Shown here piece by piece: positions 1,433-24,856 of a stretch of DNA of 46,425 nt. Each line of letters begins with the position of its first letter. Position 1 is the first letter of the stretch. The position numbers were made by a program, and so were the translations under genes. The notes under the pieces were generated by a model, which was not told the DNA's origin, made no database searches, and was given only the letters and a program-made list of their open reading frames with translations. Origin of the DNA: Mollicutes bacterium (GTDB lineage: Bacteria; Bacillota_I; Bacilli_A; Izemoplasmatales; Izemoplasmataceae); assembly GCA_003559235.1 (NCBI GenBank), contig PWME01000211.1:1-46425 (forward strand), given 5' to 3'.

Positions 1433-1533
1433 TATACCAAAAAGATTTTTATGCTGCACGCAATTGACATTATTAATTTGCTTGCATACACTAAAGATGC
1501 AGTCTTTATAAACAAAACTACCAAAGGGGGATT

Positions 1534-2301
1534 GTGATGCGCTTAGAATGGTTTGAAATGATTGTAAAGCGTACCTATAAACCATGGCTTATTACGTTAC
1601 TCATAATGGCCTTATTTAAAGGCCTAATCTTTTCACTGTACAATACAACGTACGCTTCTAAACTCGACAATGCCATTGCCACGCTTCCGCGCGTGGTTGC
1701 TCAATCAATGGGATTCATCATTAACGATAATACCTTAGAAAGCTTTTTAATAACGTATTATTACAATGCATTATTTTTCATCGCCATGATTGTATTTTTC
1801 TTTATCGTTATGAAGGCATTGAACAAGGCACCCCTAACCATGCAACGCGGTGATTCACCGCACTTAGTCAATATCACAAAAACAAAAGCGCTAAGCATGA
1901 TTGGCATAACGATAGATTTCATGATCGTGTTAACCCTTTTGGGACTCCTTATGGGATCGCAGATACATCCAAGTGCATTTAACACAAGTCTCTATTTAAC
2001 AATAAATGTGAACGTCCTCATGGTATTAATCATCCTAGGGGCTTTATGTTTTGCATGCACTCAGATAAGCAAAACCATGACACTCGCCAATCTATCGTTC
2101 ATAACACTTCTTGTATTATGGTTTGGGTTTGTACGGCTATTAGAAACCACCATCAATGCAAAATATTTTGCACAATTTCGCCTTTTTGATTTATCGCAAA
2201 CCCTAACACCAACCCGCACAGCGTTCTTCTTCATCCTCTCGATAATGTTTTATGGCATCACGCTCATTAAAGCACGCCATGAAGCACCTAATACGTCTTA
2301 A
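1534..2301 (+). CDS. polytopic membrane protein, ABC-2-type permease-like
   Basis: 255-aa ORF with about 6 hydrophobic helices. GGGGGA lies upstream of the GTG/ATG start. No partner ATPase is adjacent, so the function is not assignable from sequence. Confidence 0.5.
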   Translation: MMRLEWFEMIVKRTYKPWLITLLIMALFKGLIFSLYNTTYASKLDNAIATLPRVVAQSMGFIINDNTLESFLITYYYNALFFIAMIVFFFIVMKALNKAPLTMQRGDSPHLVNITKTKALSMIGITIDFMIVLTLLGLLMGSQIHPSAFNTSLYLTINVNVLMVLIILGALCFACTQISKTMTLANLSFITLLVLWFGFVRLLETTINAKYFAQFRLFDLSQTLTPTRTAFFFILSIMFYGITLIKARHEAPNTS

Positions 2302-2360: not shown

Positions 2361-2369
2361 GCACTATGG

Positions 2370-2527
2370 AGACACTGTTAGGTGAGGCTCCTGTATGAAT
2401 ACACGCCGCTACCGAGAAACGTCGAAAGACGCCAACCGGTTAACATGCACTGCCGGATTAAGGTTTTGCATAACGTGGCTATCACGTCATACAGTGCCAA
2501 AACTCAACGACGGGTCACACCTTTTTT
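2370..2527 (+). promoter_or_regulatory. M-box (ykoK leader) Mg2+ riboswitch aptamer
   Basis: GTTAGGTGAGGCTCCTGTATGAATACACGCCGCTACCGAGAAACGTCGAAAGACGCCAACCGGTTAAC...TAAGGTT...ATACAGTGCCAAAACTCAACGA matches the conserved M-box core as I remember it from B. subtilis mgtE (GUUAGGUGAGGCUCCUGUAU...GACGCUAAUGGGUCAAC...ACAGUGCUAAAGCUCUACGA). It lies upstream of mgtE. Confidence 0.88.
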
Positions 2528-2706: not shown

Positions 2707-4077
2707 ATGGATAAAGAACATGTTGCGACACTGAAATCATTGCGTCGCTTAATTGATACAAACCAAAAAGAAGCATTAAAAGATAAGATCAATAGTTTAG
2801 AAAATTATTTGCTTGCCGATATGATTGAACTTTTAGAACCAGAAAAACAAGTCGTTGTATTTCGTTTAATGGATAAAGATACCGCGCTTGATGTATTCGA
2901 ACATCTTGAGACAGAAATCCAACAAGATTTATTACAAAACTTTACCGATGAACGTGCCTTAGAGTTCTTCAAAGGCTTAGAACCCGATGATAGAGCCGCA
3001 TTAATGGATGAACTGCCAGCGAAAGTCGCAAAAAAACTCTTGCTTTCACTATCGAAGAAAGAAAAAGATTTAACCACCCTCGTCATGGGGTATAACGCTG
3101 GTACAGCGGGTCATATCATGACCCCAAAGTATATTTCCTTTAAACAAGGCACCACTGTACAAGACGCTTTAGATAAAATTAGAATGGTTGCTGATGAAGT
3201 TGAAACCATCTATCACTTGTATGTGACAGACCGGACACGCAAGCTTGAAGGCATGATTATGCTTAAAGATTTAATAACCGCTGAACCGGGTGCATTAATT
3301 GAAACCGTTATGGTTGAAAACCCACTGCATGCGGTTCACGATGTTAAAGACGAAGTCGTTGCGAAAATGTTGCAAGACTCTGACTTGCTCGCCATCCCGA
3401 TTGTTGATAAAGAACACCGTTTACTCGGTGTCGTCACCGTAGATGATGCGTTTGATGTATTGGAAGAAGACGCCATCGACCGTGAATTTACAACCGCTGG
3501 TTTTATCGACTTTGCCGGAAAAGAAATTGACCGTTCACGCGTTTTAACAACCGGAAAGTTATGGGAAATATGGCGTGTTCGCGTTCCCTTCCTCATTATC
3601 ACGTTGATTGGTGGTATGTTAGCGGGTGGGGTCATTAGTGGTTTTGAAGAAACCCTTGGTACATTCACCGTGCTCGCTTTCTTCATCCCAGTTGTCATGG
3701 ACTTGGGCGGGAATGTCGGTACCCAATCATCAACCATTTTCACCCGCGCAGTCGCACTGGGCCACATCGATTTTAAACGGTTTATTAAACAATGGTTAAA
3801 AGAAGTAACCGTAGGCGTCACGATGGGGCTAATGCTTGGTGTTGCTGGGGCGTTGATTGCTTTCATATGGCAAGGCGATATTCAGCTTTCGATTGTCATA
3901 TTCACGGCTTTGCTATTTACGATTACCATCGCCACAGCACTTGGTTTCATTGTCCCCTATCTCATGTTAAAAATCGGGGCGGATCAAGCGGCCGCAAGTG
4001 CGCCTTTCATCACGACTGTAAAAGACATTACCGGACTCTTTATTTTCTTCTTCTTAGCCTCAATCTTAATGCTTTAA
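2707..4077 (+). CDS. mgtE: magnesium transporter MgtE
   Basis: 456 aa with an MgtE N-domain, a CBS pair (IMTPKYISF...; LLAIPIVDKEHRLLGVVTVDDAFDVLEEDA) and a C-terminal 5-TM MgtE channel domain (PVVMDLGGNVGTQSS). AAGGAGG RBS. Preceded by the M-box. Confidence 0.95.
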   Translation: MDKEHVATLKSLRRLIDTNQKEALKDKINSLENYLLADMIELLEPEKQVVVFRLMDKDTALDVFEHLETEIQQDLLQNFTDERALEFFKGLEPDDRAALMDELPAKVAKKLLLSLSKKEKDLTTLVMGYNAGTAGHIMTPKYISFKQGTTVQDALDKIRMVADEVETIYHLYVTDRTRKLEGMIMLKDLITAEPGALIETVMVENPLHAVHDVKDEVVAKMLQDSDLLAIPIVDKEHRLLGVVTVDDAFDVLEEDAIDREFTTAGFIDFAGKEIDRSRVLTTGKLWEIWRVRVPFLIITLIGGMLAGGVISGFEETLGTFTVLAFFIPVVMDLGGNVGTQSSTIFTRAVALGHIDFKRFIKQWLKEVTVGVTMGLMLGVAGALIAFIWQGDIQLSIVIFTALLFTITIATALGFIVPYLMLKIGADQAAASAPFITTVKDITGLFIFFFLASILML

Positions 4078-7443: not shown

Positions 7444-7471
7444 AAATTATCCCCTTAAAGGACGTGTGACC

Positions 7472-8224
7472 ATGTCAAAACCATTCGCATTGAAACTTTA
7501 CATTGCCTTTTTGACATTGTTTGTGATTGTCATGAACATCCTCGCCAACGCTATGCCGTTTTTTGGCAATACAACAGGAGAAATCTCTGCACGCTATGAG
7601 ACATTATTTACCCCTGCTGGCATCACTTTTTCGATATGGGGTGTTATTTATGCGTTAAGTGTCCTGTTTGCCTTACGCTTTTTTACCTATGATATTATGA
7701 CACACCGCACCATGTGCTTACGTATTGCAAAAGCGTATACAGGGCTATCTTTAGCGAATGTAGTGTGGTTATTCCTTTGGCATGCTGAGCTTATTATAGT
7801 ATCGTCTCTTGTTTTGTTTATTGCCTTAGCGTGTGCAATCTATTTGGCATTGCACTACCGTATGGCCAATACAATCGAAAGAACATTCTTTACCATCTAT
7901 GCAGCATGGTTAAGTGTTGCCGCTATCGCCAATGTGACAATAGTGATTGTCGCAAGCACTATTACTTTGCCCTTTTCACCCCTCCTATGGACCATTGCAG
8001 TTTTAATCATCGCATCGCTTATCAGTTTTCGCGCTTCAATTACATTAAAGTCTCAAGCCTTTACCGCTGTTATCCTGTGGGCGTTTTTTGGCATTGCCTT
8101 AAGGCACGCACCCCATGCCCCAAACCAAGAAACACCCTTATTTATTACCACTTTCTTGCTTATGGGTGTGCTGATTATTACACTCTTTTTACAACCAAAA
8201 GAAAAACCGGCTAAGACCGGTTAA
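7472..8224 (+). CDS. TspO/MBR-related tryptophan-rich membrane protein
   Basis: LANAMPFFGNTTGEISARYETLFTPAGITFSIWGVIY resembles the long TspO/MBR-family proteins of Gram-positive bacteria. About 7 TM helices. ATG 7472 sits 9 nt after AAAGGA and is preferred over GTG 7466. Confidence 0.5.
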   Translation: MSKPFALKLYIAFLTLFVIVMNILANAMPFFGNTTGEISARYETLFTPAGITFSIWGVIYALSVLFALRFFTYDIMTHRTMCLRIAKAYTGLSLANVVWLFLWHAELIIVSSLVLFIALACAIYLALHYRMANTIERTFFTIYAAWLSVAAIANVTIVIVASTITLPFSPLLWTIAVLIIASLISFRASITLKSQAFTAVILWAFFGIALRHAPHAPNQETPLFITTFLLMGVLIITLFLQPKEKPAKTG

Positions 8225-9059: not shown

Positions 9060-9683
9060 TTAAGACGCTTCCATTTTTTGATGGATGGACTCAATAAGGT
9101 GCTTAAATCGCTTATACAAAATAAACGTTAAACCATATACAAGTACCGCAAGCAACACGTTAAAAGGAATTGAGGCAAACAGCGCAAAACGCCATAAATA
9201 ATTATCCTCTGTGATTCCAGGAATAATTTCAAGCATGTTCAAAAGCCCGCCAACATCGCCATCAAAATACAAATCAATATAAAAGGGAATAATAATGAAA
9301 TAATTCGATAGTGTTGCCACAACGACCCAAACGAACGCACCCGCAATAGAAGCTAGTAACGCGCCTTGTTTGGTGCGCAACTTCCGGTAAATTAAAGAAC
9401 TTGTCACAACCGTCGCAACCCCAATAATCAAATCCGCTAACTCACCCACAAAGGCCGTATGACTTGCGGGTAACTTAATAAGCGTTCGGATTACAACCAC
9501 CGCTGACCCGGCAACGGGTCCAAACATAAACCCACCAATCGCCGCAGGAACATTAGAGATTTGGACTTCTAAAAAGGCCGGAAAAATAAACGGCAAAGGA
9601 AATCGCACAAAGTAATAAAGTACCACCGATAAAGCTGATAAGTTCGCAATAACTGCAATTTGTAAGGTTTTGTTTTGTCGCAT
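9060..9683 (-). CDS. ribU: ECF-transporter S component for riboflavin (RibU/YpaA-like)
   Basis: 207 aa, 5-6 TM helices. ISNVPAAIGGFMFGPVAGSAVVVIRTLIKL resembles RibU. The gene is directly preceded by an FMN riboswitch. Confidence 0.8.
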   Translation of the reverse strand: MRQNKTLQIAVIANLSALSVVLYYFVRFPLPFIFPAFLEVQISNVPAAIGGFMFGPVAGSAVVVIRTLIKLPASHTAFVGELADLIIGVATVVTSSLIYRKLRTKQGALLASIAGAFVWVVVATLSNYFIIIPFYIDLYFDGDVGGLLNMLEIIPGITEDNYLWRFALFASIPFNVLLAVLVYGLTFILYKRFKHLIESIHQKMEAS

Positions 9684-9733: not shown

Positions 9734-9756
9734 ATACAAAAGAGACGGATAAACAC

Positions 9757-9864
9757 ATCTTCTCTCATCTAGACTATCACTATCGGTTTTGGAATTACAC
9801 CAAATCATGCGTAACGCTCGCGGACTATACCGCCGGTCGGGAATTGCGCCCTGCCCTGAAGATA
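9757..9864 (-). promoter_or_regulatory. FMN riboswitch (RFN element) aptamer
   Basis: Minus-strand read: TCTTCAGGGCAGGGCGCAATTCCCGACCGGCGGTATAGTCCGCGAGCG...GGTGTAATTCCAAAACCGATAGTGATAGTCTAGATGAGAGAAGA. It contains the invariant RFN blocks AGGGCAGGG.GAAATTCCCGACCGGCGGTA and CCGACAGTGAAAGTCTGGATG.GAGAAG. Confidence 0.9.
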
Positions 9865-9913
9865 TTCATTCATTTATATTACAACATGATTTTAGCATGT
9901 GAAACAATGAAAT

Positions 9914-11853: not shown

Positions 11854-12699
11854 TTATTGCTTACGATTTTCAATCGTCTTAATCAGTTGCATTAACACTT
11901 CATGACTACCATCAATGCATGCAAGGGTACGTCGCACGGTTTCAAATAACTCATTTGCTAGATTTTTTGCTTTATCTAAGCCTAACAACGTCACAACCGT
12001 TGATTTTTTATGCCTTGTGTCGGATAAACTCTTTCCCATTGATGTTTCAGAACTAGTCGCTTCTAATATATCATCTTGAACTTGGAATACCAACCCAAGT
12101 TTTTCACCAATGGTTTGCCAGTGTACTGCGTCTTTAGGGTTCACAATATGAGCCGCCGCAACAAGCGGCGCTTCTATTAATCGTGCGGTTTTATTACAAT
12201 GAATTTTTTCTAACGTATCATATGTGATATGTTTTCCTTCACTATCAAAATCAAGCCATTGCCCATAAACCATGCCCAAAGCACCCGCCGCGTGTGAAAA
12301 CACCTTAATAATTGCGACTTTTGCTTGATCATTCAGTGCATCTGTTTCACCAATCAAACGGAACGCATCGGTAAGCAACGCATCACCCGCCAAAATCGCG
12401 GTCGCTTCTCCAAATACTTTATGCACGGTTGGTTTTCCGCGCCTTAAATCATCATCATCCATCGCGGGTAAATCATCATGAATCAACGAATACGTATGAA
12501 TCATTTCAATCGATGCCGCAAGCTTCATGTAGGGCTCAATCGAATAACCATAATCTTCAAGCGCTGTTAAAAAAAGCCGTGGTCTTAACCGTTTACCACC
12601 GTGTAAAAGCGCGTGTTGAATCGCCGATTTCAACGCGCTATTTGGGAGTGTTTCACAATAGTTTTTTAATGTATTTTCAATCATCGTTAGATGATTCAT
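11854..12699 (-). CDS. ispA: (2E,6E)-farnesyl diphosphate synthase
   Basis: 281 aa. FARM is IHTYSLIHDDLPAMDDDDLRRGKPTVHKVFG and SARM is FQVQDDILE. Tyr at position -5 of the FARM is the short-chain (FPP) determinant known from the Geobacillus enzyme. Confidence 0.85.
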   Translation of the reverse strand: MNHLTMIENTLKNYCETLPNSALKSAIQHALLHGGKRLRPRLFLTALEDYGYSIEPYMKLAASIEMIHTYSLIHDDLPAMDDDDLRRGKPTVHKVFGEATAILAGDALLTDAFRLIGETDALNDQAKVAIIKVFSHAAGALGMVYGQWLDFDSEGKHITYDTLEKIHCNKTARLIEAPLVAAAHIVNPKDAVHWQTIGEKLGLVFQVQDDILEATSSETSMGKSLSDTRHKKSTVVTLLGLDKAKNLANELFETVRRTLACIDGSHEVLMQLIKTIENRKQ

Positions 12700-13727: not shown

Positions 13728-15095
13728 TTAAGACGTTTTTAAGGTAAGCAGTGTGACGCTTTCAACGTGGCTTGTATGTGGAAACATATCAAACGGTGTG
13801 ATAGATTTTACGGTATAAAGTTTTCTTAAGCGTTCAATATCTTTTGCCAATGTACTCGGATTACAAGAAACATACACAAGTTTTTTAACCGGTTTTTTTA
13901 ACACTTGATCAATCAAACGTGCCCCTAACCCTGTTCTAGGTGGGTCAAACATCATCACATCAAACGTTTCTTTCGCTTCAAACAACGTTTTAATCGCCCT
14001 AGATGCATCATCACATAAGAAACGTACATGGTTAAATTGATTACGCTTTGCGTTTTCTTTCGCGCTGTCAATCGATGCTTGGGATGCATCAACCCCAACC
14101 ACACGTTTGAAGCGATTCGCAAAGGCTAATGCCATGGCACCACTACCTGTAAACATATCGCACAAACTTTCATCTGAGGTGTCAAATAACGTTTCGATGT
14201 GGGCAATCATCGCATGGGCTGCCTCTGGATTAATTTGATAAAAAGCTTTCGGTCCTAAAGCAACTTCAACATCACGAATCTTTTCCACAATATACTGTTT
14301 TCCTGCAACCACTTCAATGGAATCCCCAAAGACTTCATGATTTTTTGCGTCATGGCGAACACTCAGTGCCACACTAACAACATCGTCAATAGTGAGTAAC
14401 TTTTCCGCAAGCGGTTTTAACACCGTGCTTAAAATACTCACAACCAACGTCAATTGTACTTCATCCGTTGCACTGCTAATGCGGGCAACAATGTGCCTTA
14501 ATAACCCGCGCATGGTTTTTCCATCAAACGCACGAATTGATTGATCATTACATATCGCTAACGCTTTTTGAATCACGCGGTTTAACGTAGGGTGTTGGAC
14601 TGGGCAATCAGGAATGGAGAGTAAATCCATTGTGTTTTTCTTATAAAGCCCCGCAACGACGCCTTCTTTGGTTTGCATCACGGGCATTTGCGCTTTATGC
14701 CGATAGTGTTTTAAGGTATTAAGCGGGGTAAAGGATTGAAAAAGCGATTCGTCATCAACTTTGGGTGCATACCGATCAAACGCTTGCTTAAGTAAGTCTT
14801 CTTTTAAACGGAGTTGTTCATCATACGCGACGTGTTGCAGTTGACATCCACCACAAACCCCGTAGTACTTACAAAACGGCCGCGTTCGGTAATACGCGCG
14901 TTTTTTTATGCGAATCGTTTCACCGTAAGCGAAAGTTCGTTTTACATCGATAATCCGCACCACCACAACCTCTGGTGGCATAACACCATCCACAAACACG
15001 GCTTTGCGCTTATAAAAGCCAACCCCTTCACCGTTAATACCGATGGATTTAATCGTCAGTAATATTTCTTGGTCCTTTTCTAATTGAACATCCAT
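13728..15095 (-). CDS. 23S rRNA (uracil-C5)-methyltransferase, RumA/RlmCD family (paralog 1)
   Basis: 455 aa with an N-terminal TRAM domain, the Fe-S cysteine cluster CKYYGVCGGCQLQH, the SAM motif DMFTGSGAMAL, and C-terminal YVSCNPSTLAKD and FDMFPHTSHVE. Confidence 0.85.
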   Translation of the reverse strand: MDVQLEKDQEILLTIKSIGINGEGVGFYKRKAVFVDGVMPPEVVVVRIIDVKRTFAYGETIRIKKRAYYRTRPFCKYYGVCGGCQLQHVAYDEQLRLKEDLLKQAFDRYAPKVDDESLFQSFTPLNTLKHYRHKAQMPVMQTKEGVVAGLYKKNTMDLLSIPDCPVQHPTLNRVIQKALAICNDQSIRAFDGKTMRGLLRHIVARISSATDEVQLTLVVSILSTVLKPLAEKLLTIDDVVSVALSVRHDAKNHEVFGDSIEVVAGKQYIVEKIRDVEVALGPKAFYQINPEAAHAMIAHIETLFDTSDESLCDMFTGSGAMALAFANRFKRVVGVDASQASIDSAKENAKRNQFNHVRFLCDDASRAIKTLFEAKETFDVMMFDPPRTGLGARLIDQVLKKPVKKLVYVSCNPSTLAKDIERLRKLYTVKSITPFDMFPHTSHVESVTLLTLKTS

Positions 15096-15119: not shown

Positions 15120-15389
15120 CTACCACGTGTAATCTTCTGGATTAAACGCATACTCATCATCTTCAACCATCGTCGCTTTTTCAGGTGGCGATGTTGCTAG
15201 TGTTTTATCACGCACCCTTTGACGTACAAGGCGGTAAAGTTGCACAAGCGAAAAGACGAAAATAAAATAATAGACTGGACGCGTCATGAAACCACCTTCA
15301 GACCGAAGTTCAGAAACAATAAATATCCCGAGTCCTAAAATAACGCCCCATAACTTTGTACTTTGTTTAGATTCTTTGTTATTTTGCAT
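15120..15389 (-). CDS. small two-TM membrane protein (89 aa), unknown function
   Basis: Start set to ATG 15389 (GGAGGAGAAAT before the ATG). Two hydrophobic helices and an acidic C-terminal tail (MVEDDEYAFNPEDYTW). Confidence 0.5.
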   Translation of the reverse strand: MQNNKESKQSTKLWGVILGLGIFIVSELRSEGGFMTRPVYYFIFVFSLVQLYRLVRQRVRDKTLATSPPEKATMVEDDEYAFNPEDYTW

Positions 15390-15432: not shown

Positions 15433-16626
15433 TTACGATGACACACCGTCTTCTTTTAATAATTTTTCTGAAAAGACATCAATTAATATGGCTCCTAAGG
15501 GTGCACTTAATAGTATGGATATGACCGCAAGTGCCAACATTTTTTCTCCCCCAGCAATCCCAAGCGTTAAAGGCAATCCGCCAATTGACGCTTGCACCGT
15601 TGCTTTGGGTAAAAACGCCATCACAAAAAATGTGCGTTCACGAAGCGAAAACATGCTTCTTTGCGTCACAAGCAACACAGCCAGTGAACGCACGATTAAC
15701 CCACTAAGCACAATAACAATACCAATCAACCCAACCTCTAAGGCAACCATTGGATCAACCGCGGCCCCTACCAACACAAATAAGAATACCTCCGCAATAA
15801 CCCACACTTTATCAAATTTTCTTGACAGCCTTTCACCAAGCGGCGGTTTCTTTTCAATCATCACAATCCCTAAAACCATGACCCCAAGCAGCGCCGCAAT
15901 CGCTAAAGTGCCTTCAAGCCAATCAGCCAAAGCGACCATGAAGATACTTGCCGATAAAAGCATAATCACTTTTTTTGAATCGCGTATTTTAAACCGGTTA
16001 AACAAAAACAACATGGCAAATCCAACCATCAAACCAAGGACAACCCCTAACAGAATGGAGAGCGGAATCGAAAAAATTTGTAATGCCACATTGATGCTTG
16101 TGGCCGTACTGATTCCCACAAACATCGAAAAGACTGTAATGGCGATCACATCATCCACACTCGCAGACGCTAAAATAACCGATGGCGCATGGTTTTTCTT
16201 CCCAACCCCTTTTTTCATCAAAGCGAGCATAGAAGGGACAATAACAGCCGGTGAGACCGCCGCAATCATAAACCCTGTCATTCCACCTTGCACAAAACTA
16301 AAGTCAAACAAAATAATAACCATCAAGGCCACGAAAAGGCCTTCAAAAACCACGGGCACTGTGCTCATAAACGCCGCTGGTTTACCAATCTTTTGTAAGG
16401 TTTTTCGGTTCAATCCAAGTCCTGCGCGCAATAACACAATAATAAGCGTAATACGCCGAATATCCGTTGAGATGGCAAGCATCGAATCGTCCAACCAATT
16501 TAACGCACTCGGACCAACCAAAATACCACCAATAAGCATCCCAACCAGTGGTGGCATCTTCACTCTCGATGCAAAAAAACCAAACAATAACCCAACCGCA
16601 ATAATAACCGCTACACTAATCATCAT
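15433..16626 (-). CDS. cation:proton antiporter (Na+/H+ exchanger family)
   Basis: About 397 aa with roughly 11-12 TM helices. The N-terminus VAVIIAVGLLFGFFASRVKMPPLVGMLIGGILVGPSALNWLD is typical of the CPA family. Start at ATG 16626 (GGAGG 8 nt upstream). Confidence 0.75.
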   Translation of the reverse strand: MMISVAVIIAVGLLFGFFASRVKMPPLVGMLIGGILVGPSALNWLDDSMLAISTDIRRITLIIVLLRAGLGLNRKTLQKIGKPAAFMSTVPVVFEGLFVALMVIILFDFSFVQGGMTGFMIAAVSPAVIVPSMLALMKKGVGKKNHAPSVILASASVDDVIAITVFSMFVGISTATSINVALQIFSIPLSILLGVVLGLMVGFAMLFLFNRFKIRDSKKVIMLLSASIFMVALADWLEGTLAIAALLGVMVLGIVMIEKKPPLGERLSRKFDKVWVIAEVFLFVLVGAAVDPMVALEVGLIGIVIVLSGLIVRSLAVLLVTQRSMFSLRERTFFVMAFLPKATVQASIGGLPLTLGIAGGEKMLALAVISILLSAPLGAILIDVFSEKLLKEDGVSS

Positions 16627-16641
16627 ACGAATCGCCTCCAA

Positions 16642-16684
16642 TAAAAAACGCCTGTTCACAACGAAAAACGTTGTAAACAGGCGT
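16642..16684 (-). terminator. strong intrinsic terminator / leader hairpin between heliorhodopsin and the antiporter
   Basis: On the minus strand, ACGCCTGTTTACAACG-TTTTT-CGTTGTGAACAGGCGT (16-bp stem, one mismatch) followed by TTTTTT, immediately ahead of the antiporter RBS. Confidence 0.75.
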
Positions 16685-16730
16685 CATCAGCACATGGCAG
16701 TTTCGGTGAACACCATCACCATCGCGTTCA

Positions 16731-16758
16731 ATTATACCATAATGATGGGGAGATACAA
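16731..16758 (-). promoter_or_regulatory. candidate extended -10 promoter upstream of the leader hairpin
   Basis: On the minus strand, TTGTAT, 16-nt spacer, TGgTATAAT (the -10 is the complement of 16731-16736). Confidence 0.45.
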
Positions 16759-16765
16759 GCGCTTT

Positions 16766-17557
16766 TTACGGTTGTAATGCACCAAAGAATACCAACCAAG
16801 CAAGAATCGATTTCGCCACAAGACTTAACACAATATACGTTCTTTCACCATACAGGTAGTCTTTCCATTTTCCAACCCGTAAATACTGTAAGATCATATT
16901 AACTGGGAATGTATTAAAGGCTACGAAGTACGTACCAACAATTGCCCATACAAACCATGGGACTTGGGATAAATCTGCAAGCCCAACCATGTACGTAATA
17001 ATGACAATCCATGGCGCAAGCCCGGCAATGGTTCCCCACACAAATGGTCCCCAATTGACTTCAGATTTTTCTTTGCCAGCGTTTAATTGTTCCATATCGA
17101 GACCAAACAAGTTCATCGCTGCATTCACAATAAAGATAAGAATCAATGAACCAATGTCGTATACGCCAAAGAGTGTTGCGATTAAGACGATCATAATCGA
17201 AGAACTGAGCGCATACTCAAACCAACGGAACTTATTGATGCCTTGTTTTAAGTCACGGTTATAAATATCGTTGGTCTTTTTCGGCAAACTAATTAAAAAG
17301 TGGGCACCTGCTGAGATAAACAAAAACGATGCGACCAAAATACCAAATGGTAGTTCAAACAAATCACTTCTACCTGGTACGAGCGTTTGTTCAACTGGGT
17401 CAAAATCTTGGAAATACTGTACAATCATCGGGGTAAATTCTGCCGCTTCACGAATCACGACAAACGCGAGTACAACCATTAAGATCCCTTGGATAAAATG
17501 GATCCCGCCCATGATAAGATTAAACTTTCTTAAACCTTTGAGTGTTCCTTCATTCAT
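16766..17557 (-). CDS. heliorhodopsin (retinal-binding 7-TM photoreceptor with inverted topology)
   Basis: 263 aa from ATG 17557 (AGGAGG 7 nt upstream). It aligns end to end with HeR 48C12 as I recall it: NKFRWFEYALSSSIMIVLIA vs NIFRWVEYSLSSSVMIVLIA (counterion Glu), and GERTYIVLSLVAKSILAWLVFFGAL vs GERAYIVLSLVAKSALAWQIFSGTL (Schiff-base Lys). The conserved His residues are present in GGIHFIQ and GAHFLIS. Confidence 0.88.
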   Translation of the reverse strand: MNEGTLKGLRKFNLIMGGIHFIQGILMVVLAFVVIREAAEFTPMIVQYFQDFDPVEQTLVPGRSDLFELPFGILVASFLFISAGAHFLISLPKKTNDIYNRDLKQGINKFRWFEYALSSSIMIVLIATLFGVYDIGSLILIFIVNAAMNLFGLDMEQLNAGKEKSEVNWGPFVWGTIAGLAPWIVIITYMVGLADLSQVPWFVWAIVGTYFVAFNTFPVNMILQYLRVGKWKDYLYGERTYIVLSLVAKSILAWLVFFGALQP

Positions 17558-17615
17558 GCTAAAGCCTCCTAAACGTTTTTTGGAAAATTCCATTATTATT
17601 TGACTGGTTACATTC

Positions 17616-17643
17616 ATTATACGTCTTTAAAGACAAATGTCAT
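17616..17643 (-). promoter_or_regulatory. candidate heliorhodopsin promoter with an embedded palindrome
   Basis: On the minus strand, ATGACA, 16-nt spacer, TATAAT. The spacer contains the perfect 12-bp palindrome GTCTTTAAAGAC (17623-17634). Confidence 0.45.
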
Positions 17644-17665
17644 TATGTGCACTTAAAAAAAAACA

Positions 17666-18493
17666 CTATCCCCTTGACCGGGACGTGTTTTTTGCGATGA
17701 ATCCACGCATTAATGTAAGCAGTTCTTGAGGCTTTTCAAAGATGGCCACATGGGCACATTCGGGTATAATCACAAACTCAGATTTCTCTATTGACCGGTG
17801 AATGGCTTCAGAAAACTTCACCGGCTTTAAAATGTCATCTGCACCACAAACAACGAGCGTTGGTGCTGTGATTTTTTCTAAATCATCAATCATGTCAACA
17901 TCATGCAAAAATGTCTCATAAAGCGTCACTTGACCACGGTAATATTCAAGAGGCAGCTGCTCCATCGCTTCAATGCGCTTTGCCATGTCGGCTTGATGGG
18001 CTTGAATGTAATCAGGATGATAAAGCGTTGCTTTCACGCCTTCAAAAAATCGTTCAGCATCTTCAGTTTTCGCAAGCATAATCCACAGTTCAATAAACCG
18101 TTTCAATTGTTCATCCACACTTGCGGCTGAATCAATCACCGTCAGTGAAGCAACACGCGCTTTATGTGTAATTGCCATCTTCATCGCGACTTCTCCACCA
18201 TAAGAAGTGCCAATCATATGGGCACGCTTAACCCCAACCGCATTCATAATCGCACACGCATCTAAAGCGTGTTTTTCAAATGTATAGGGGCCTTCTGGCT
18301 TATCAGAAAGTAACTGACCACGCATGTCGTAAAGAATAACGCGCACCCCCATGCGTTCAAATAACTGTGCATAGAGCGACCAACTCGTGTATGACGCCAT
18401 GACACCATTATGAAACATAACCGTTTCCAAAGCGTCTTTAGGGCCCTTCACTTCATACGCTAAATGTACACCATCACGATGAATCGTTTTCAT
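17666..18493 (-). CDS. alpha/beta-fold hydrolase
   Basis: 275 aa with HNGVMAS (oxyanion region), the GTSYGG nucleophile elbow, and a C-terminal CAHVAIFE catalytic His region. AGAGGAGA RBS lies inside the end of the upstream gene. Confidence 0.7.
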   Translation of the reverse strand: MKTIHRDGVHLAYEVKGPKDALETVMFHNGVMASYTSWSLYAQLFERMGVRVILYDMRGQLLSDKPEGPYTFEKHALDACAIMNAVGVKRAHMIGTSYGGEVAMKMAITHKARVASLTVIDSAASVDEQLKRFIELWIMLAKTEDAERFFEGVKATLYHPDYIQAHQADMAKRIEAMEQLPLEYYRGQVTLYETFLHDVDMIDDLEKITAPTLVVCGADDILKPVKFSEAIHRSIEKSEFVIIPECAHVAIFEKPQELLTLMRGFIAKNTSRSRG

Positions 18494-19847
18494 GGGATGT
18501 CTCCTCTTTAATCAATAAAGAAACTGATTCAATGTGGCTCGTTTGCGGAAACATATCAAACGGGGTAACCGCTTCGACATGGTACCCTTGCGCTTGTAAA
18601 TAATTTAGGTCTCGCGCAAGTGTACTCACATTACATGAAATATACACAATCCGCGCAATATTCATAGCAGTAACATGTTCTAAAAACGCCTGATCGCATC
18701 CTTTTCTTGGTGGATCGACAAATAACACATCAATGGCTTCATCGCTAATCCTTGGCATAATTTGGCTGGCTTCACCATGGTGAAAGACTACGTTTTCTAT
18801 CGCGTTCATCTTAGCATTTACACGCGCATTTTTAATCGCTTCTTTTTCAATGTCAAACGCAATTACTTTCCCAACATGGGGTGCAAGTGCCAGCGCAAGA
18901 GAGCCAATGCCTGTGTATGCATCCAACACTGTCATCGTATTATTAACGTTTGCATATTTAAGCGCTTGCTTGTATACCAACTGTGTTTGTACAGGGTTAA
19001 TTTGGAAAAACGACTTATGCGACATCGTATAGCGGTGTTGCATCAACGTATCTTCTAACACATCATCACCGTGTAAGACTTTCGCTTTACCGTTTAATAC
19101 CGCTGGATTTTCACCTGTATTCACATGATGCACAATGGTTTTAATCTTTGGATATTTTGTGATTAAACGTTCAACTAAGGCATCTTTATGGGGTAATTTT
19201 GACGATTTTGTTACAAGGACAAGCGTCATCGCTTCGTTTGAACGACTTTGCCGAATTGATACCCCACGAAACACCCCTTTATCCGAACGGCTGCTATAGA
19301 TTGGTATATCAAGGTCTGACATATTTGATTTAATGAAACGTATAATATCAGAAAACACTTTAGGAAATACATGGCAGCGTTTTAAGTTAACAATATCGCG
19401 GCTTTGCGGCTGATGCAATCCCGCCACAATCCTTCCCCCGCGCATACCAAAATGGATGAATGTCTTATTGCGGTAATAATAAGGATTATTCATCCCAACG
19501 GTTGGTTTGACCGTGGTCTCTATATGGCCAAGCTTTTTAAGGGTTGTTCTTGTGCGGTGTTCTTTAAAATTTAACTGCGTTTGATAATCCATATGCATCG
19601 TATTGCAGCCACCACACACTTCATAGTGCTCACAAATTGGAATTTTGCGGTAAGGTGACGCCTCGCGAATGTCTACCAATCTGCCAATGCCAAAATTGGC
19701 ATTCCGCTTGATCAGTTTTATTAACGCGCGTTCCCCTTTTAATGCATCCTTGACGAAAACAGGATAGCCATCAATTCGGCACACCCCGCGCGCATCATGG
19801 GTCAAATCTGTAAACACCACTTCATGATAAGTATTATTGTCAACCAT
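18474..19847 (-). CDS. 23S rRNA (uracil-C5)-methyltransferase, RumA family (paralog 2)
   Basis: 457 aa with a TRAM domain, CEHYEVCGGCNTMHM, DAYTGIGSLALAL, YISCNVSTLARD and FDMFPQTSHIE. Confidence 0.85.
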   Translation of the reverse strand: MVDNNTYHEVVFTDLTHDARGVCRIDGYPVFVKDALKGERALIKLIKRNANFGIGRLVDIREASPYRKIPICEHYEVCGGCNTMHMDYQTQLNFKEHRTRTTLKKLGHIETTVKPTVGMNNPYYYRNKTFIHFGMRGGRIVAGLHQPQSRDIVNLKRCHVFPKVFSDIIRFIKSNMSDLDIPIYSSRSDKGVFRGVSIRQSRSNEAMTLVLVTKSSKLPHKDALVERLITKYPKIKTIVHHVNTGENPAVLNGKAKVLHGDDVLEDTLMQHRYTMSHKSFFQINPVQTQLVYKQALKYANVNNTMTVLDAYTGIGSLALALAPHVGKVIAFDIEKEAIKNARVNAKMNAIENVVFHHGEASQIMPRISDEAIDVLFVDPPRKGCDQAFLEHVTAMNIARIVYISCNVSTLARDLNYLQAQGYHVEAVTPFDMFPQTSHIESVSLLIKEETSHENDSS

Positions 19848-21541: not shown

Positions 21542-21610
21542 GATTTTGCGCTCCTTTATATTAGATTCCAATCGCCTTCATGACGTTGGTTATTGCTTTA
21601 ACAAGGGTGA

Positions 21611-21691
21611 TTATTTTTTACCTTTCATCGCATCACGTTTGGCTTTGTTTATTTCGTAATATTCGATAATGCTATATCCACTATGCATCAT
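21611..21691 (-). CDS. micro-ORF A (26 aa): MMHSGYSIIEYYEINKAKRDAMKGKK
   Basis: GGAGGGAATATCTC precedes ATGATG. TAA stop. One of four tandem paralogs. Below the ORF-track cutoff; translated by hand. Confidence 0.55.
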   Translation of the reverse strand: MMHSGYSIIEYYEINKAKRDAMKGKK

Positions 21692-21718
21692 GAGATATTC
21701 CCTCCTTGGTTTTTATGA

Positions 21719-21802
21719 TTAGTATTTTTTTGATTTTTGATCGGTTTGCTTTGCCTTAAAGCGTTCATATTCTTGAATGATTGTATATCCAGTGCCCATC
21801 AT
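21719..21802 (-). CDS. micro-ORF B (27 aa): MMGTGYTIIQEYERFKAKQTDQKSKKY
   Basis: GGAGGAACCAATC precedes ATGATG. Its start overlaps the TGA stop of micro-ORF C (ATGA). Confidence 0.55.
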   Translation of the reverse strand: MMGTGYTIIQEYERFKAKQTDQKSKKY

Positions 21803-21915
21803 GATTGGTTCCTCCTTCGTTTCAAGTTATTGTGATAATGTATCGTTTTTGTGGCTTGCGTTTTTATTTTTGTTGTTTCGTATTGTTGAATCATTGCATA
21901 TCCTGCACACATCAT
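21799..21915 (-). CDS. micro-ORF C (38 aa): MMCAGYAMIQQYETTKIKTQATKTIHYHNNLKRRRNQS
   Basis: GGGAGGTATGAATC precedes ATGATG. The tail reads through the RBS of micro-ORF B. Confidence 0.55.
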   Translation of the reverse strand: MMCAGYAMIQQYETTKIKTQATKTIHYHNNLKRRRNQS

Positions 21916-21943
21916 GATTCATACCTCCCGTTATTGTTAGATT

Positions 21944-22033
21944 TTATTTTGACCGTTGTTTATTTGGAAATTGTCGGTTTTTCGCTTTGTAGATTTCATA
22001 GTATTCCATTACTGCATACCCTGCACACATCAT
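21944..22033 (-). CDS. micro-ORF D (29 aa): MMCAGYAVMEYYEIYKAKNRQFPNKQRSK
   Basis: GGAGGGTATGATC precedes ATGATG. TAA stop. Confidence 0.55.
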   Translation of the reverse strand: MMCAGYAVMEYYEIYKAKNRQFPNKQRSK

Positions 22034-22035
22034 GA

Positions 22036-22188
22036 TCATACCCTCCATCTTTCATTTTTTACGTCGGGTTCAAAATTGAATGCGTCTTGATGTTTTGTTA
22101 AAGCGTCATCGTTTGGTCGATTGATGCATCGCTTGTAGCATCGGTTGACCTGGGTGTTTCTTGATAAAGTGTTTTGAATGTTTTTCAC
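22036..22188 (-). CDS. candidate first ORF of the operon (50 aa): (M)KNIQNTLSRNTQVNRCYKRCINRPNDDALTKHQDAFNFEPDVKNERWRV
   Basis: GTG start 9 nt after GGAGG (complement of 22198-22202). The TGA stop lies 2 nt before the ATG of micro-ORF D. The alternative ATG at 22195 is only 2 nt from the SD and gives an unrelated 29-aa frame. Confidence 0.35.
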   Translation of the reverse strand: MKNIQNTLSRNTQVNRCYKRCINRPNDDALTKHQDAFNFEPDVKNERWRV

Positions 22189-22244
22189 AATGCATCACCT
22201 CCGTATAATTTATTATGTAGTTAATTATTTAAACTAAATTATTG

Positions 22245-22260
22245 TTTTTATTAATTTTTT
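22245..22260. repeat. 16-nt direct repeat TTTTTATTAATTTTTT, copy 1 (in the transcribed leader)
   Basis: An identical 16-mer occurs at 22339-22354. The two copies bracket the promoter, 94 bp apart. Confidence 0.7.
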
Positions 22261-22286
22261 GATTAGTTTTTCTTAACTACGCTTTC

Positions 22287-22315
22287 ATTCTATATGATGT
22301 TTTCTACAATGTCAA
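22287..22315 (-). promoter_or_regulatory. near-consensus sigma-A promoter of the micro-ORF operon
   Basis: On the minus strand, TTGACA (complement of 22310-22315), exactly 17 nt, TAGAAT (complement of 22287-22292). Confidence 0.65.
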
Positions 22316-22338
22316 TAGAAAAGTTAAATTTTTTTATC

Positions 22339-22354
22339 TTTTTATTAATTTTTT
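22339..22354. repeat. 16-nt direct repeat TTTTTATTAATTTTTT, copy 2 (upstream of -35)
   Basis: Identical to 22245-22260. Confidence 0.7.
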
Positions 22355-22435
22355 TAATTTTTTGGTTTAATATATTGATTTATTTAGATTCATAGCATGA
22401 TATTTTTGCTTTGTATTCTTTATATAGCCATAAAA

Positions 22436-22465
22436 AAAGCACCCGCTTAAGCGAGTGCGCACATT
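22436..22465 (-). terminator. intrinsic terminator of the ABC-2 exporter operon
   Basis: On the minus strand, GCACTCGC-TTAA-GCGGGTGC followed by TTTTTTT. Confidence 0.75.
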
Positions 22466-22474
22466 TTCTTATGG

Positions 22475-23278
22475 CTATTTTTCTAATGTATTCACAAAGT
22501 GTCGATACGCGAGTGCTGTTAGTCCAATCATAAAGACTGCCCCAATTATCAAATACAAAATGGGTGGCAAGTTGTGTTCGTGGTCTAAAAGTTCTGCAGC
22601 CGTCATCAATCCTTTAACGGGCCAGAAGACTGGCACAATACCGAGTAAATACTGTTTGGCATCCTGCATGGTTTCAATCACGACAAGTGCTGGAATCAGT
22701 ATGATTATGCCTGAAAACTTCATATAGGCAAAGCCTTCTATTTTATTGTTCGCAAGGCTGGCCATGATTAATGCAAAAACCGGGGTAAAAAGTCCCGCAA
22801 CCAATGCATACACAAGAACCCAGGGAATCGTAAAGTTTTCAAAAAGATCAACCGTTCCAATCCCTGGTATGGTGAAAGTATACCCATCACCGCTTAACCA
22901 TTTTGTGCCCATAATAACCCAAAACGCTGCGTTAACCCCCAAGATATAGGCGTAGACGGTTTTAAACCGAATGTAGCCACTTAAAGACATCGGTGTCACC
23001 CTGATAGTATCAAGCGTATTTTCATCTTTATTATCAAGCAATAAGAACCCAAGTAAGGCAGCACTTACAAATGGGGCGATGCTTGCAAACAATATAATCA
23101 TGACAATACCAGCCACCATCGTGCCTTGTGTGTCACCCCCAAAACGATCCAGCAACATTGGTAAAAGAAAAGACCCAACAATAATGAGCATTAATGGATA
23201 AACAAGCATCACAATGGTCATGCTATCTCTAATGATATTCTTTAATTCATAACGAAATAATTTGAGTGCACGTTTCAT
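22475..23278 (-). CDS. ABC-2-type exporter permease (second of two)
   Basis: 267 aa with 6 TM helices. GAGGGA RBS. It follows the first permease with a 1-nt gap. Confidence 0.7.
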   Translation of the reverse strand: MKRALKLFRYELKNIIRDSMTIVMLVYPLMLIIVGSFLLPMLLDRFGGDTQGTMVAGIVMIILFASIAPFVSAALLGFLLLDNKDENTLDTIRVTPMSLSGYIRFKTVYAYILGVNAAFWVIMGTKWLSGDGYTFTIPGIGTVDLFENFTIPWVLVYALVAGLFTPVFALIMASLANNKIEGFAYMKFSGIIILIPALVVIETMQDAKQYLLGIVPVFWPVKGLMTAAELLDHEHNLPPILYLIIGAVFMIGLTALAYRHFVNTLEK

Positions 23279-23279
23279 A

Positions 23280-24002
23280 TTAATCCCTCACCGATGATAA
23301 CGCATATTTCGGTACAATAATCCATTTAAACATGATAACAATCAAGGCAAACAAATACATCGTTCCGACCACCAGCATCCATGCATCAACCGTTTCACCA
23401 AAACTAAAGTTTATCATGATGAAAGAAACGTGTGTTGGTGAAAAGAGGAAAATCCACTCAGCCGCATCTCCTAAAACTCCAAGCGCATAAAAAATGGTCG
23501 GAAACGCAAATAATAACATGTATAACCCAACCCCGGCAATCAAGCCATTGAAATCACGCGAATAAATAGAGAAGACAAAACCAATCGCCGTATGGACAAG
23601 CGTAATCACAATAACAAAGAAAACCAAAGGCACAAATTTGACCACCACATCAAACAAAATCGCCGCAAAAATTGCGATGAGTAATGCGGATTGTAATGCA
23701 ACATACACCGCTGTCACAAGCTTTGAAGCTAAAATAGCCCCAAACCCTGAAGGCGTAACCATTAAGGTTTTTAACGTGTTTTCCTGTTTTTCATAAAACA
23801 AACTCGCACCAATCCATATCATTGTCATTAAAGCCGTATCCACAAAAACGATTGTTGGAATAAAAGCACCGGCTTGTTCTTTACCAATTAAATAAATCAC
23901 CGCCAACCAAATGAGGGTTACCCCAAAACTAATTTGAATAATGTTATATTTTATAAGTCTGGTAAACTCTCCTTTTAATAATTTCAAAAAATTATCCATC
24001 AT
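23280..24002 (-). CDS. ABC-2-type exporter permease (first of two)
   Basis: 240 aa with 6 TM helices. The YEKQENTLKTLMVTP motif is typical of ABC-2 permeases. ATGA overlap with the ATPase gene. Confidence 0.7.
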   Translation of the reverse strand: MMDNFLKLLKGEFTRLIKYNIIQISFGVTLIWLAVIYLIGKEQAGAFIPTIVFVDTALMTMIWIGASLFYEKQENTLKTLMVTPSGFGAILASKLVTAVYVALQSALLIAIFAAILFDVVVKFVPLVFFVIVITLVHTAIGFVFSIYSRDFNGLIAGVGLYMLLFAFPTIFYALGVLGDAAEWIFLFSPTHVSFIMINFSFGETVDAWMLVVGTMYLFALIVIMFKWIIVPKYALSSVRD

Positions 24003-24856
24003 TGTTTTTCACCCGTCACTTTAATGAATATTTCATCCAGTGAGGTTTCACCACTATGCATGGTCTCTATGGTTTTTTCTTGGATCAAAGACAAGAAAGT
24101 TTCATCGTTACCAATCTCATCAAGATTAAAGACTTTACGTTCTGTACCACTATTTTCATAATACTCTACCGCTAGTTCTCTACGACCATACTTCAATTTA
24201 AGTGCGCGCGGGGTTGAAGTTTCCACAATCTCACCATCTTTAATAAACGCAACCCGGTCACACAACTCTTCAACATCATTCATTAAGTGCGTACTTAAAA
24301 AGACCGTTCCACCCGCTTCTTTAAATGCTTTAATCATATCTTTAATGATCCGCGCATTTTTCGGGTCAAGTCCATTAGTAACTTCATCCAAAAAGAGTAC
24401 TTTAGGGTCGTTTAACATTGCTCTTACAAAGTTAAGCCGCATTTTCATCCCCTTTGAATATTCACCAACGGGTCGGTCTTTATCTTCATAAAGGCCAACC
24501 TGTTTTAACAACGCATCCACATCGGCATTGCGTTGATAAAGCATTTTGAAAAATGCCATGTTCTCAGCCGCTGTTAACTTAGAAAAATGCACTGGCAACT
24601 CAAAACCAACCCCGATGGTCTCAAAGTATTCATTGCCATATTCATGCAAGTCTTTTCCTTTGTAGACAATGGAGCCTTCATAATCTTTAAACAGTCGTGT
24701 CAAAATCTTTTGAGTCGTTGATTTTCCTGCCCCACTGGGTCCAAGCAATCCAAAGACTTCACCCTTTTGCACAGAGAAACTAATGCCACGCACCGCTTCA
24801 ATCGCGCTTTTACGGTACTTAAACCGCAAGTCTTTCACTTCAAAGAGTTTTTCCAT
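23999..24856 (-). CDS. ABC transporter ATP-binding protein (ABC-2 exporter subfamily)
   Basis: 285 aa. Walker A is GPSGAGKST, the signature-like motif is YSKGMKMRL, and Walker B is VLFLDEVTNGLD. GGAGGG RBS. Confidence 0.85.
   Translation of the reverse strand: MEKLFEVKDLRFKYRKSAIEAVRGISFSVQKGEVFGLLGPSGAGKSTTQKILTRLFKDYEGSIVYKGKDLHEYGNEYFETIGVGFELPVHFSKLTAAENMAFFKMLYQRNADVDALLKQVGLYEDKDRPVGEYSKGMKMRLNFVRAMLNDPKVLFLDEVTNGLDPKNARIIKDMIKAFKEAGGTVFLSTHLMNDVEELCDRVAFIKDGEIVETSTPRALKLKYGRRELAVEYYENSGTERKVFNLDEIGNDETFLSLIQEKTIETMHSGETSLDEIFIKVTGEKQ

Follow-up and report, generated by a model that had tools for sequence, protein, structure and literature searches.

What can the genes around a heliorhodopsin (HeR) gene tell us about the function of the protein? 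The question is raised by a 46,425-nucleotide contig from a Mollicutes bacterium of the Izemoplasmatales (GenBank assembly GCA_003559235.1, contig PWME01000211.1; this whole stretch is referred to below as the window). An open reading frame (ORF) on its minus strand, 16766..17557, had been read as a HeR gene, and the initial annotation took the genomic context of this gene to be informative for HeR function. Our analysis upholds the identity of the gene and not the value placed on its neighbours. The antiporter gene on one side is predicted to be switched by fluoride through an RNA element of its own, and the hydrolase gene on the other side appears to be insulated from HeR and is not a conserved neighbour, so that these genes say little about what HeR does. 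We put the probability that the HeR identity and a layout of three separate transcription units both hold at about 0.8.

The ORF has the attributes of a complete HeR. The encoded protein matches the Pfam family Heliorhodopsin (PF18761) with 323.6 bits (cut-off of 26.7 bits) over profile positions 1-242 of 242 and the NCBIfam equivalog NF038020, 'heliorhodopsin HeR', with 300.2 bits (cut-off of 100), in agreement with the full-length identity that had been claimed. The best matches in a phmmer search of the PDB were TaHeR (6is6; E = 7.7e-54) and 48C12 (6su3; E = 4.9e-45). In the HMMER alignment to 48C12 (native numbering) the residues H20, H86, E114 and K249 are equivalent to H23, H80, E107 and K241, and the serines of the Schiff-base cavity, S82 and S245, are equivalent to S76 and S237; the Schiff-base lysine of helix G, K249, further corresponds to K238 of TaHeR. 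The key Lys, Glu and His residues are at their canonical positions, and both of the motifs pointed out in the initial annotation are present (…VLSLVAKSIL… and …FRWFEYALSSS…), with the single Glu counterion of helix C, E114, lying within RWFEYALSSS. None of the six residues varies in 81 subfamily sequences, namely that of the window and those of 80 related loci. The latter are the best 80 of 570 confirmed relatives from a scan of genome contigs, each taken together with flanking sequence of up to 10 kb per side.

The predicted fold leads to the same identification. An AlphaFold2 model calculated from an input alignment of 34 sequences (pLDDT of 87.2, pTM of 0.82) has seven helices and an AB β-hairpin (residues 44-68, with strands 44-53 and 58-68). 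The model aligns well in Foldseek with 6is6 (TM-scores of 0.85/0.89) and with 6su3 (0.83/0.85), and less well with type-1 rhodopsins (approximately 0.45-0.63). The profile search and the comparison with 48C12 and TaHeR that had been proposed as a check thus match in both sequence and modelled fold. The N-terminal, BC, DE and FG segments hold 11 Lys and Arg residues, compared with one in the AB, CD, EF and C-terminal segments; an inverted topology with a cytoplasmic N-terminus fits this distribution by the positive-inside rule only. As judged from its sequence, ORF 16766..17557 is a genuine and ordinary HeR.

The ORF ends at 16766 and has two possible starts, ATG 17617 (283 residues) and ATG 17557 (263 residues). 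The sequence indicates that ATG 17557 is the correct start, because an AGGAGG Shine-Dalgarno motif lies 7 nt upstream of it (and is identical in the strain variants L081 and L084) and because ATG 17617 falls within the TATAAT -10 box of the predicted HeR promoter. Ten metagenomic contigs (from SRR32456876, SRR32456881, SRR32456906 and ERZ27266011) encode an identical HeR protein, and gene calls made on them independently also gave a length of 263 residues. The coding sequences of the strain variants L081-L083 differ from that of the window at 28 of 792 nt and encode the same protein, so that all 28 differences are synonymous and none is non-synonymous. This count was used in place of an NG86 dN/dS comparison with relatives, which failed because the synonymous divergence (dS) was saturated; the non-synonymous divergence (dN) from the more distant relatives is 0.10-0.24. 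HeR is under strong purifying selection, which argues against it being a relic gene. The subfamily to which it belongs, of approximately 263 residues and with hosts among Bacillota, Izemoplasmatales and Anaerolineae, is very large (6004 matches). Among the best 80 of the 570 relatives, the closest is from a sediment metagenome-assembled genome (MAG) named 'Mollicutes bacterium' (83% identity) and the others, from Izemoplasmatales, Acholeplasmatales, Bacilli, Clostridia and Anaerolineae, are approximately 70% identical. Close relatives are already named 'heliorhodopsin HeR' by NCBI.

The order of the genes around HeR is as it had been described: an α/β hydrolase gene lies upstream, an antiporter gene and a gene for a small protein of 89 residues lie downstream, and the block is bracketed by two RumA paralogues (Table 1). 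The elements between these genes divide the block. The hydrolase gene is adjacent to HeR on the same strand, 108 nt away, and overlaps the upstream RumA-2 gene by 20 nt; on account of this overlap it probably belongs to the RumA-2 operon. The terminator-like hairpin at its 3' end is found in both the minimum free energy (MFE) fold and the centroid fold, and L081 and L084 retain the stem. The T-run varies between seven and nine T between strains (17648..17658 compared with L081 and L084), which leaves the hairpin unchanged. This hairpin is predicted to insulate HeR from the RumA-hydrolase unit. It is followed by the predicted HeR promoter, both hexamers of which are kept in L081 and L084 with a spacer of 17 nt, compared with 16 nt in the window. 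Since a terminator for the hydrolase gene and a promoter matching the sigma-70 consensus at 11 of 12 positions precede it, HeR looks monocistronic, with its own predicted promoter and a strong ribosome-binding site (RBS).

The gap of 139 nt between the stop codon of HeR and the start codon of the antiporter gene holds a feature that is absent from the initial annotation, a fluoride riboswitch aptamer, which scores well above the RF01734 gathering score of 34. The antiporter start, ATG 16626, agrees with independent gene calls (397 residues). The 5' arm of the terminator in the expression platform shares 15 nt with the 3' end of the aptamer (16671..16685). The promoter ahead of the aptamer is identical in L081 and L084, and its TTG... 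and TGnTAnAAT elements and the spacer are conserved in two syntenic loci, L002 and L052, in which the elements also follow each other as in the window: HeR stop codon, -35 box, TGnTAnAAT, aptamer, terminator and RBS. Between strains whose HeR coding sequences differ at 28 sites, 160 of the 161 nt of the riboswitch region are identical, and the sole difference changes an A-U pair of the terminator to G-U. The layout is predicted to be that of a textbook transcriptional fluoride ON-switch, in which the fluoride-bound aptamer would sequester the 5' arm of the terminator, allow read-through and turn the antiporter on. Among the classes of genes associated with fluoride riboswitches, Na+/H+ antiporters rank second in frequency (PMC11139923). 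The antiporter is predicted to be a fluoride-regulon gene, since a riboswitch with its own promoter and terminator separates it from HeR, and its presence is explained without reference to HeR. Neither the terminator scan nor folding revealed a terminator in the stretch from the HeR stop codon to the aptamer, and for want of a terminator of their own HeR transcripts probably end at that of the riboswitch. They would read into the antiporter gene only with fluoride present, which would make any coupling of the two genes incidental rather than functional.

Table 1. Features of the HeR locus and of related loci. Positions refer to the window unless a locus is named.
Feature	Position	Strand	Evidence
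Farnesyl-diphosphate synthase (IspA type)	11854..12699	-	NF045485 303.1 bits (cut-off 275)
RlmD/RumA paralogue 1 (RumA-1)	13728..15095	-	TIGR00479 380.5 bits; syntenic in L002
Small predicted membrane protein, 89 aa, no family, 3' of antiporter	15120..15389	-	ORF, Pfam/NCBIfam
Na+/H+ (CPA-type) exchanger, 397 aa, GGAGG RBS	15433..16626	-	PF00999 130.8 bits
Expression platform: 17-bp GC-rich terminator hairpin and T-run (predicted)	16641..16685	-	Fold, MFE -53 kcal/mol, z -4.96
Fluoride riboswitch aptamer (Rfam RF01734, crcB motif)	16671..16729	-	48.1 bits, E 2.2e-10, model 1-64 of 64
Predicted promoter of riboswitch-antiporter unit, TTGTAT-16 nt-TGgTATAAT (extended -10)	16731..16758	-	Sequence
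Heliorhodopsin (HeR) coding sequence, 263 aa, H20 S82 H86 E114 S245 K249	16766..17557	-	Pfam, NCBIfam, PDB alignment, AlphaFold2 model
Shine-Dalgarno AGGAGG, 7 nt 5' of HeR ATG 17557	17565..17570	-	Sequence; identical in L081, L084
Predicted HeR promoter, ATGACA-16 nt-TATAAT, 11/12 sigma-70 consensus	17616..17643	-	Consensus scan
Intrinsic-terminator-like hairpin (A-tract, stem, 9 T), 3' end of hydrolase gene	17658..17693	-	Fold
Alpha/beta hydrolase (Abhydrolase_1), 275 aa	17666..18493	-	Pfam
RlmD/RumA paralogue 2 (RumA-2; TRAM and U5 methyltransferase)	18474..19847	-	TIGR00479 390.9 bits; syntenic in L002, L038
Fluoride riboswitch and exchanger unit beside or near HeR	window 16641..16758 (-); L002:10818-10892; L052:5100-5172; L062:9811-9896; L068:9785-9869; L003:6551-6633		
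Riboswitch-antiporter unit without HeR	L085:1520-1608		
Tocopherol-cyclase-like gene	L011:10838-11812; L017:1984-2946; L043:10835-11800; L051:10836-11807; L067:10812-11765; L077:10838-11812		

The proteins of the window were compared by tblastn with the 80 related loci, and real synteny was found with four of them only (L002, L038, L052 and L001). The common order is UvrB, ABC transporter, SHOCT, serine dehydratase, RumA-2 and HeR, followed in some by the riboswitch-antiporter unit and RumA-1; the UvrB, ABC ATPase and serine dehydratase are 68-79% identical to those of L002, a 'Mollicutes bacterium' MAG. In the clade of the window, RumA-2 and HeR flank a variable insertion slot. It is occupied by the hydrolase gene in the window, by an ArsR-type helix-turn-helix gene on the opposite strand in L002 (9437-9853) and by a DUF554 gene in L038 (9150-9905) and L052 (3457-4170), and tblastn detected no homologue of the hydrolase in the vicinity of HeR across the 80 loci. 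A homologue of the antiporter is near HeR in five of the 80, each with its own aptamer. With the window included, six of 81 loci have the riboswitch-antiporter unit no more than 10 kb from HeR, and in five of them the two are immediate neighbours. The unit follows downstream of HeR on its strand in the window, L002 and L052 and is divergent from it in L062 and L068; in L003 it is close by. The six loci are spread over three clades of a neighbour-joining HeR tree that is poorly resolved (all sequences being approximately 70% identical), and L038, which belongs to the clade of the window HeR, is without the unit. Homologous aptamers stand 5' of orthologous antiporter genes in L002, L052, L062, L068, L003 and L085. 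The last of these was the only locus recovered by an antiporter-seeded scan of metagenome contigs (38% identity), too small a yield to estimate how frequently antiporters of this kind stand beside HeR, and it has the aptamer and no HeR. The survey of aptamers across the loci covered 1.27 Mb and used a covariance model, R1, and a loose regular expression, with confirmation by Rfam; R1 recovered exactly six Rfam-confirmed aptamers and the regular expression gave the same six. As the RNAalifold consensus structure of R1 is not the true aptamer fold, R1 works mostly as a sequence model and divergent aptamers could be missed.

These comparisons bear on two explanations in which HeR would act together with the gene beside it. 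HeR and the fluoride-switched antiporter might form a functional pair, either through light-modulated antiport and pH homeostasis or through HeR transcripts that feed the riboswitch and so integrate light and fluoride. The three arrangements and three clades in which the unit recurs near HeR speak for such a pair, as does the finding of six aptamers in 1.27 Mb, more than the approximately one fluoride riboswitch that is expected per genome. Read-through from HeR is physically possible, the family Na_H_Exchanger is among the top families of adjacent genes (four of 149), and there is a precedent in OcHeR, which modulates an ABC transporter (PMC11109279). The antiporter has, however, its own conserved promoter and riboswitch in every case, and the unit is missing in 75 of the 81 loci, including L038; it is a standard module of fluoride regulons (PMC11139923) and, as in L085, exists without HeR. 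Given the small number of independent events, the many families implicitly tested and the poorly resolved tree, the recurrence is not statistically secure, and the word 'antiporter' does not occur in either of the two published surveys of HeR neighbours that were searched for it. We regard a functional pair as very unlikely. A partnership with the upstream hydrolase is the other explanation. It could appeal to the position of the two genes on the same strand and to Cho et al. (2024), who list α/β hydrolases among ten frequent classes of HeR operon partners, defined by a single shared promoter (PMC11109279), but here a terminator hairpin and a separate promoter are predicted to lie between the genes, and the overlap with RumA-2 suggests that the hydrolase belongs to the RumA operon instead. 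In addition, the hydrolase has no homologue near HeR elsewhere in the set, no α/β-hydrolase family is among the top 25 Pfam families of the 149 HeR-adjacent genes, the slot holds ArsR or DUF554 genes in the closest relatives, and the HeRs of the published hydrolase group have a different, longer N-terminus than the window HeR. Membership in that group was rejected on the grounds of the intervening terminator and promoter, the conservation count and the differing N-terminus, and joint action of HeR with the hydrolase is highly improbable.

Two further explanations concern the protein itself. Instead of serving as a regulatory sensor, HeR could itself transport ions, driven or gated by light in the manner of the viral V2HeR3, for which proton transport has been reported (PMC12873467), and the sequence by itself is compatible with transport. 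TfHeR of Trichococcus flocculiformis, which aligns with the window HeR without gaps at 71% identity, is described as a helper of photolyase and not as an ion transporter (PMC9769723). H20, H86 and E114 have the same counterparts in both structurally characterized HeRs compared above. 48C12 and TaHeR are not known to pump, and we consider a transporter to be very unlikely. The other explanation, that HeR is the relic or orphan opsin of an anaerobe that lives in the dark without retinal and has no light function, would agree with the sediment and anaerobic-reactor MAGs from which relatives come and with a window devoid of retinal-pathway genes. It is difficult to reconcile with strain differences that are synonymous throughout, with chromophore-site residues that are invariant in 81 sequences at approximately 70% identity, and with an intact promoter, RBS and reading frame, and it is highly improbable.

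We favour the reading of an ordinary, regulatory HeR in a transcription unit of its own. In this scheme the apoprotein would bind all-trans retinal at K249, with E114 as the counterion, the retinal being taken up or made from an exogenous precursor. Light would isomerise the chromophore and give rise to a long-lived photointermediate, and the cytoplasmic loops of HeR might in turn modulate a partner protein, soluble or membrane-bound, whose gene lies elsewhere in the genome. The likeliest theme would be defence against light damage, for example by boosting a class II cyclobutane pyrimidine dimer (CPD) photolyase; this is suggested by the 71% identity to TfHeR and by photolyase being the commonest neighbour in the subfamily, and it is made the most plausible theme by the recurrence of photolyase, Msr and catalase genes among the subfamily neighbours. 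TfHeR binds class II CPD photolyase and raises DNA repair approximately threefold, with E97, R162 and K227 implicated in the binding (PMC9769723). That the window HeR is specifically a photolyase helper is a tentative suggestion by analogy, and a doubtful one.

Several observations weigh against this reading or parts of it. No known HeR partner, photolyase included, was found across the 46 kb of the window or in its four closest syntenic relatives, so that analogy is the only basis for assigning one. The three TfHeR residues are replaced in the window HeR with their charges kept (E97 by D97, R162 by K162 and K227 by R227), and the three positions vary alike in photolyase-linked and unlinked loci; they predict nothing for this reason, and their use as a predictor of a photolyase partner was rejected as non-discriminating. 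Sediments and anaerobic reactors are the sources of the MAGs that hold the relatives, and exposure to light is uncertain there. The promoter scan found ten sites where 11.5 are expected in shuffled sequence, that is, without enrichment, and because there is no excess over shuffled sequence the promoter calls rest on position, quality and conservation and not on statistics. Finally, retinal binding, the photocycle, the lack of pumping, the activity of the promoters and terminators and the response to fluoride are all properties that we infer.

The genes beside HeR elsewhere in the subfamily were examined in the 80 loci by unbiased clustering followed by Pfam and, separately, in a Pfam census of 149 immediately adjacent genes. 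In the former, photolyase is the commonest neighbour (16 of 80 loci), followed by a tocopherol-cyclase-like protein, SDRs and DUF2238. The latter gave photolyase (7), Tocopherol_cycl (6), SDR (5), MsrB (4), DUF2238 (4), Na_H_Exchanger (4), MsrA (3) and Mn-catalase (2). Photolyase is absent from L001, L002, L038 and L052, the loci that are syntenic with the window. Genes for the repair of oxidative damage recur directly beside HeR (MsrB/SelR in four cases, MsrA/PMSR in three and Mn-catalase in two, with photolyase in seven), in agreement with the role in photoprotection proposed by Bulzu et al. The tocopherol-cyclase-like protein, of approximately 320 residues (PF14249; E = 2.7e-20) and with no NCBIfam name, is encoded on the same strand directly 3' of HeR in six loci, in four of which (L011, L043, L051 and L077) photolyase lies upstream. 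It may be an uncharacterised recurrent neighbour of HeR.

The supply of retinal was judged from the gene content of the window, for which 43 non-overlapping ORFs were scanned against Pfam. None of them matched Blh/BCD, lycopene cyclase, phytoene synthase or desaturase, or photolyase, which bears out the earlier statement that the window is without retinal-synthesis genes; glutamine synthetase was likewise not found in the window. The prenyl synthase is of the farnesyl-diphosphate type, as had been proposed: it exceeds the cut-off of the corresponding model (Table 1) and scores 227.7 bits on the CrtE model compared with a cut-off of 460, and is not the geranylgeranyl-diphosphate synthase CrtE. 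A Tyr is found in its sequence five residues ahead of the first DDxxD motif. The conclusion drawn earlier, that the chromophore must be scavenged or encoded elsewhere, is true, but it is nearly trivial. A GTDB survey found the full de novo retinal pathway in one of 381 HeR-only genomes, and its authors inferred that such genomes must be supplied by exogenous retinal or by conversion from β-carotene or retinol (Bulzu et al., preprint 10.1101/2021.02.01.429150). Since HeR-only genomes rarely hold the full pathway, its absence from 46 kb is expected; the window cannot settle the matter for the whole genome. A lack of retinal genes is already known as the norm for HeR-only genomes.

Other parts of the window are of less concern to HeR. 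The housekeeping genes include those for DnaE, pyruvate kinase, acetate kinase, MetK and UvrB, and there are several transporters as well; the ABC transporter genes (22475..24856) are approximately 5 kb from HeR, with four other genes between. No homologue of the 89-residue protein was found in the 80 related loci. Two more riboswitches are present: an M-box (2367..2522, plus strand; 136.4 bits) ahead of MgtE (2707..4077), and a flavin mononucleotide (FMN) riboswitch (9753..9867, minus strand; 108.9 bits), which precedes the gene for an ECF-transporter S component (9060..9683) that presumably serves to take up riboflavin. An ORF of 255 residues (1534..2301, plus strand) with no Pfam match, which lies a short way 5' of the M-box, is a candidate gene; it overlaps the 5' end of an Abhydrolase_5 gene (671..1585, minus strand) by approximately 50 nt. 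A membrane ORF of 252 residues (7466..8224, plus strand), 9 kb from HeR, has a weak match to TspO/MBR (E = 0.0019, below the cut-off). Homologues of this ORF (31-34% identity) lie within approximately 7 kb of HeR in the Trichococcus/Carnobacteriaceae loci L026, L034, L035, L042, L044 and L066, and likewise in two Christensenellaceae loci. The SHOCT-like gene and the ABC-2 permease gene are separated by an AT-rich stretch of approximately 900 bp (21572..22474; GC content of approximately 0.36-0.375), in which only short ORFs without a family were found and no Rfam match at E ≤ 0.1.

The HeR gene itself adds little to what is known, as the subfamily has thousands of members, close relatives already carry the name and a homologue with 71% identity has been characterized. 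The main new information is that the supposedly informative neighbours are not HeR partners. The mapping of regulatory RNA and terminators predicts three independent transcription units, and the locus should not be cited in support of a connection of HeR with either the antiporter or the hydrolase. Arguments from gene neighbours about HeR function need the annotation of riboswitches and terminators. Should the recurrence of HeR with fluoride-switched antiporters prove real, it would suggest a new class of HeR partner.

Among the known systems, TfHeR (NZ_FOQC01000073.1, the related locus L029) is the nearest in kind. It is of the same subfamily and the same length (263 residues) as the window HeR and has the same set of His, His, Glu, Lys, Ser and Ser residues. 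The ground state of TfHeR was monitored at 544 nm. Genes for photolyase, DUF2238, HIT or Cdd1 were not found beside HeR in the window or across its 46 kb, and the host of TfHeR is a lactic acid bacterium of the Carnobacteriaceae, whereas that of the window HeR belongs to a 'Mollicutes'/Izemoplasmatales-like lineage. TaHeR (6is6, 7u55) and 48C12 (6su3, 6uh3) are 39-42% identical to the window HeR, with TM-scores of 0.82-0.89, and have the AB β-hairpin and the Schiff-base, counterion and His positions in common with it. M221 of the window HeR is the residue found in TaHeR, whereas 48C12 has Q213 at this position. Both come from a different phylum or domain, and most of the gaps in the alignments are due to a slightly longer AB loop region. 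AbHeR, which is linked to glutamine synthetase (PMC9529153), and OcHeR, which is linked to the OmrDE ABC transporter (PMC11109279), are of the same family and would share the same presumed logic, in which HeR, once activated by light, uses its cytoplasmic face to modulate a partner; both are actinobacterial and lie in operons with their partners, whereas the window HeR appears to be monocistronic. When set beside other systems in which RF01734 controls an antiporter, the element in the window is typical, with a full aptamer, a terminator platform and the usual class of gene. Its only oddity is its position directly behind a HeR gene that has no terminator, an arrangement that recurs in a few relatives.

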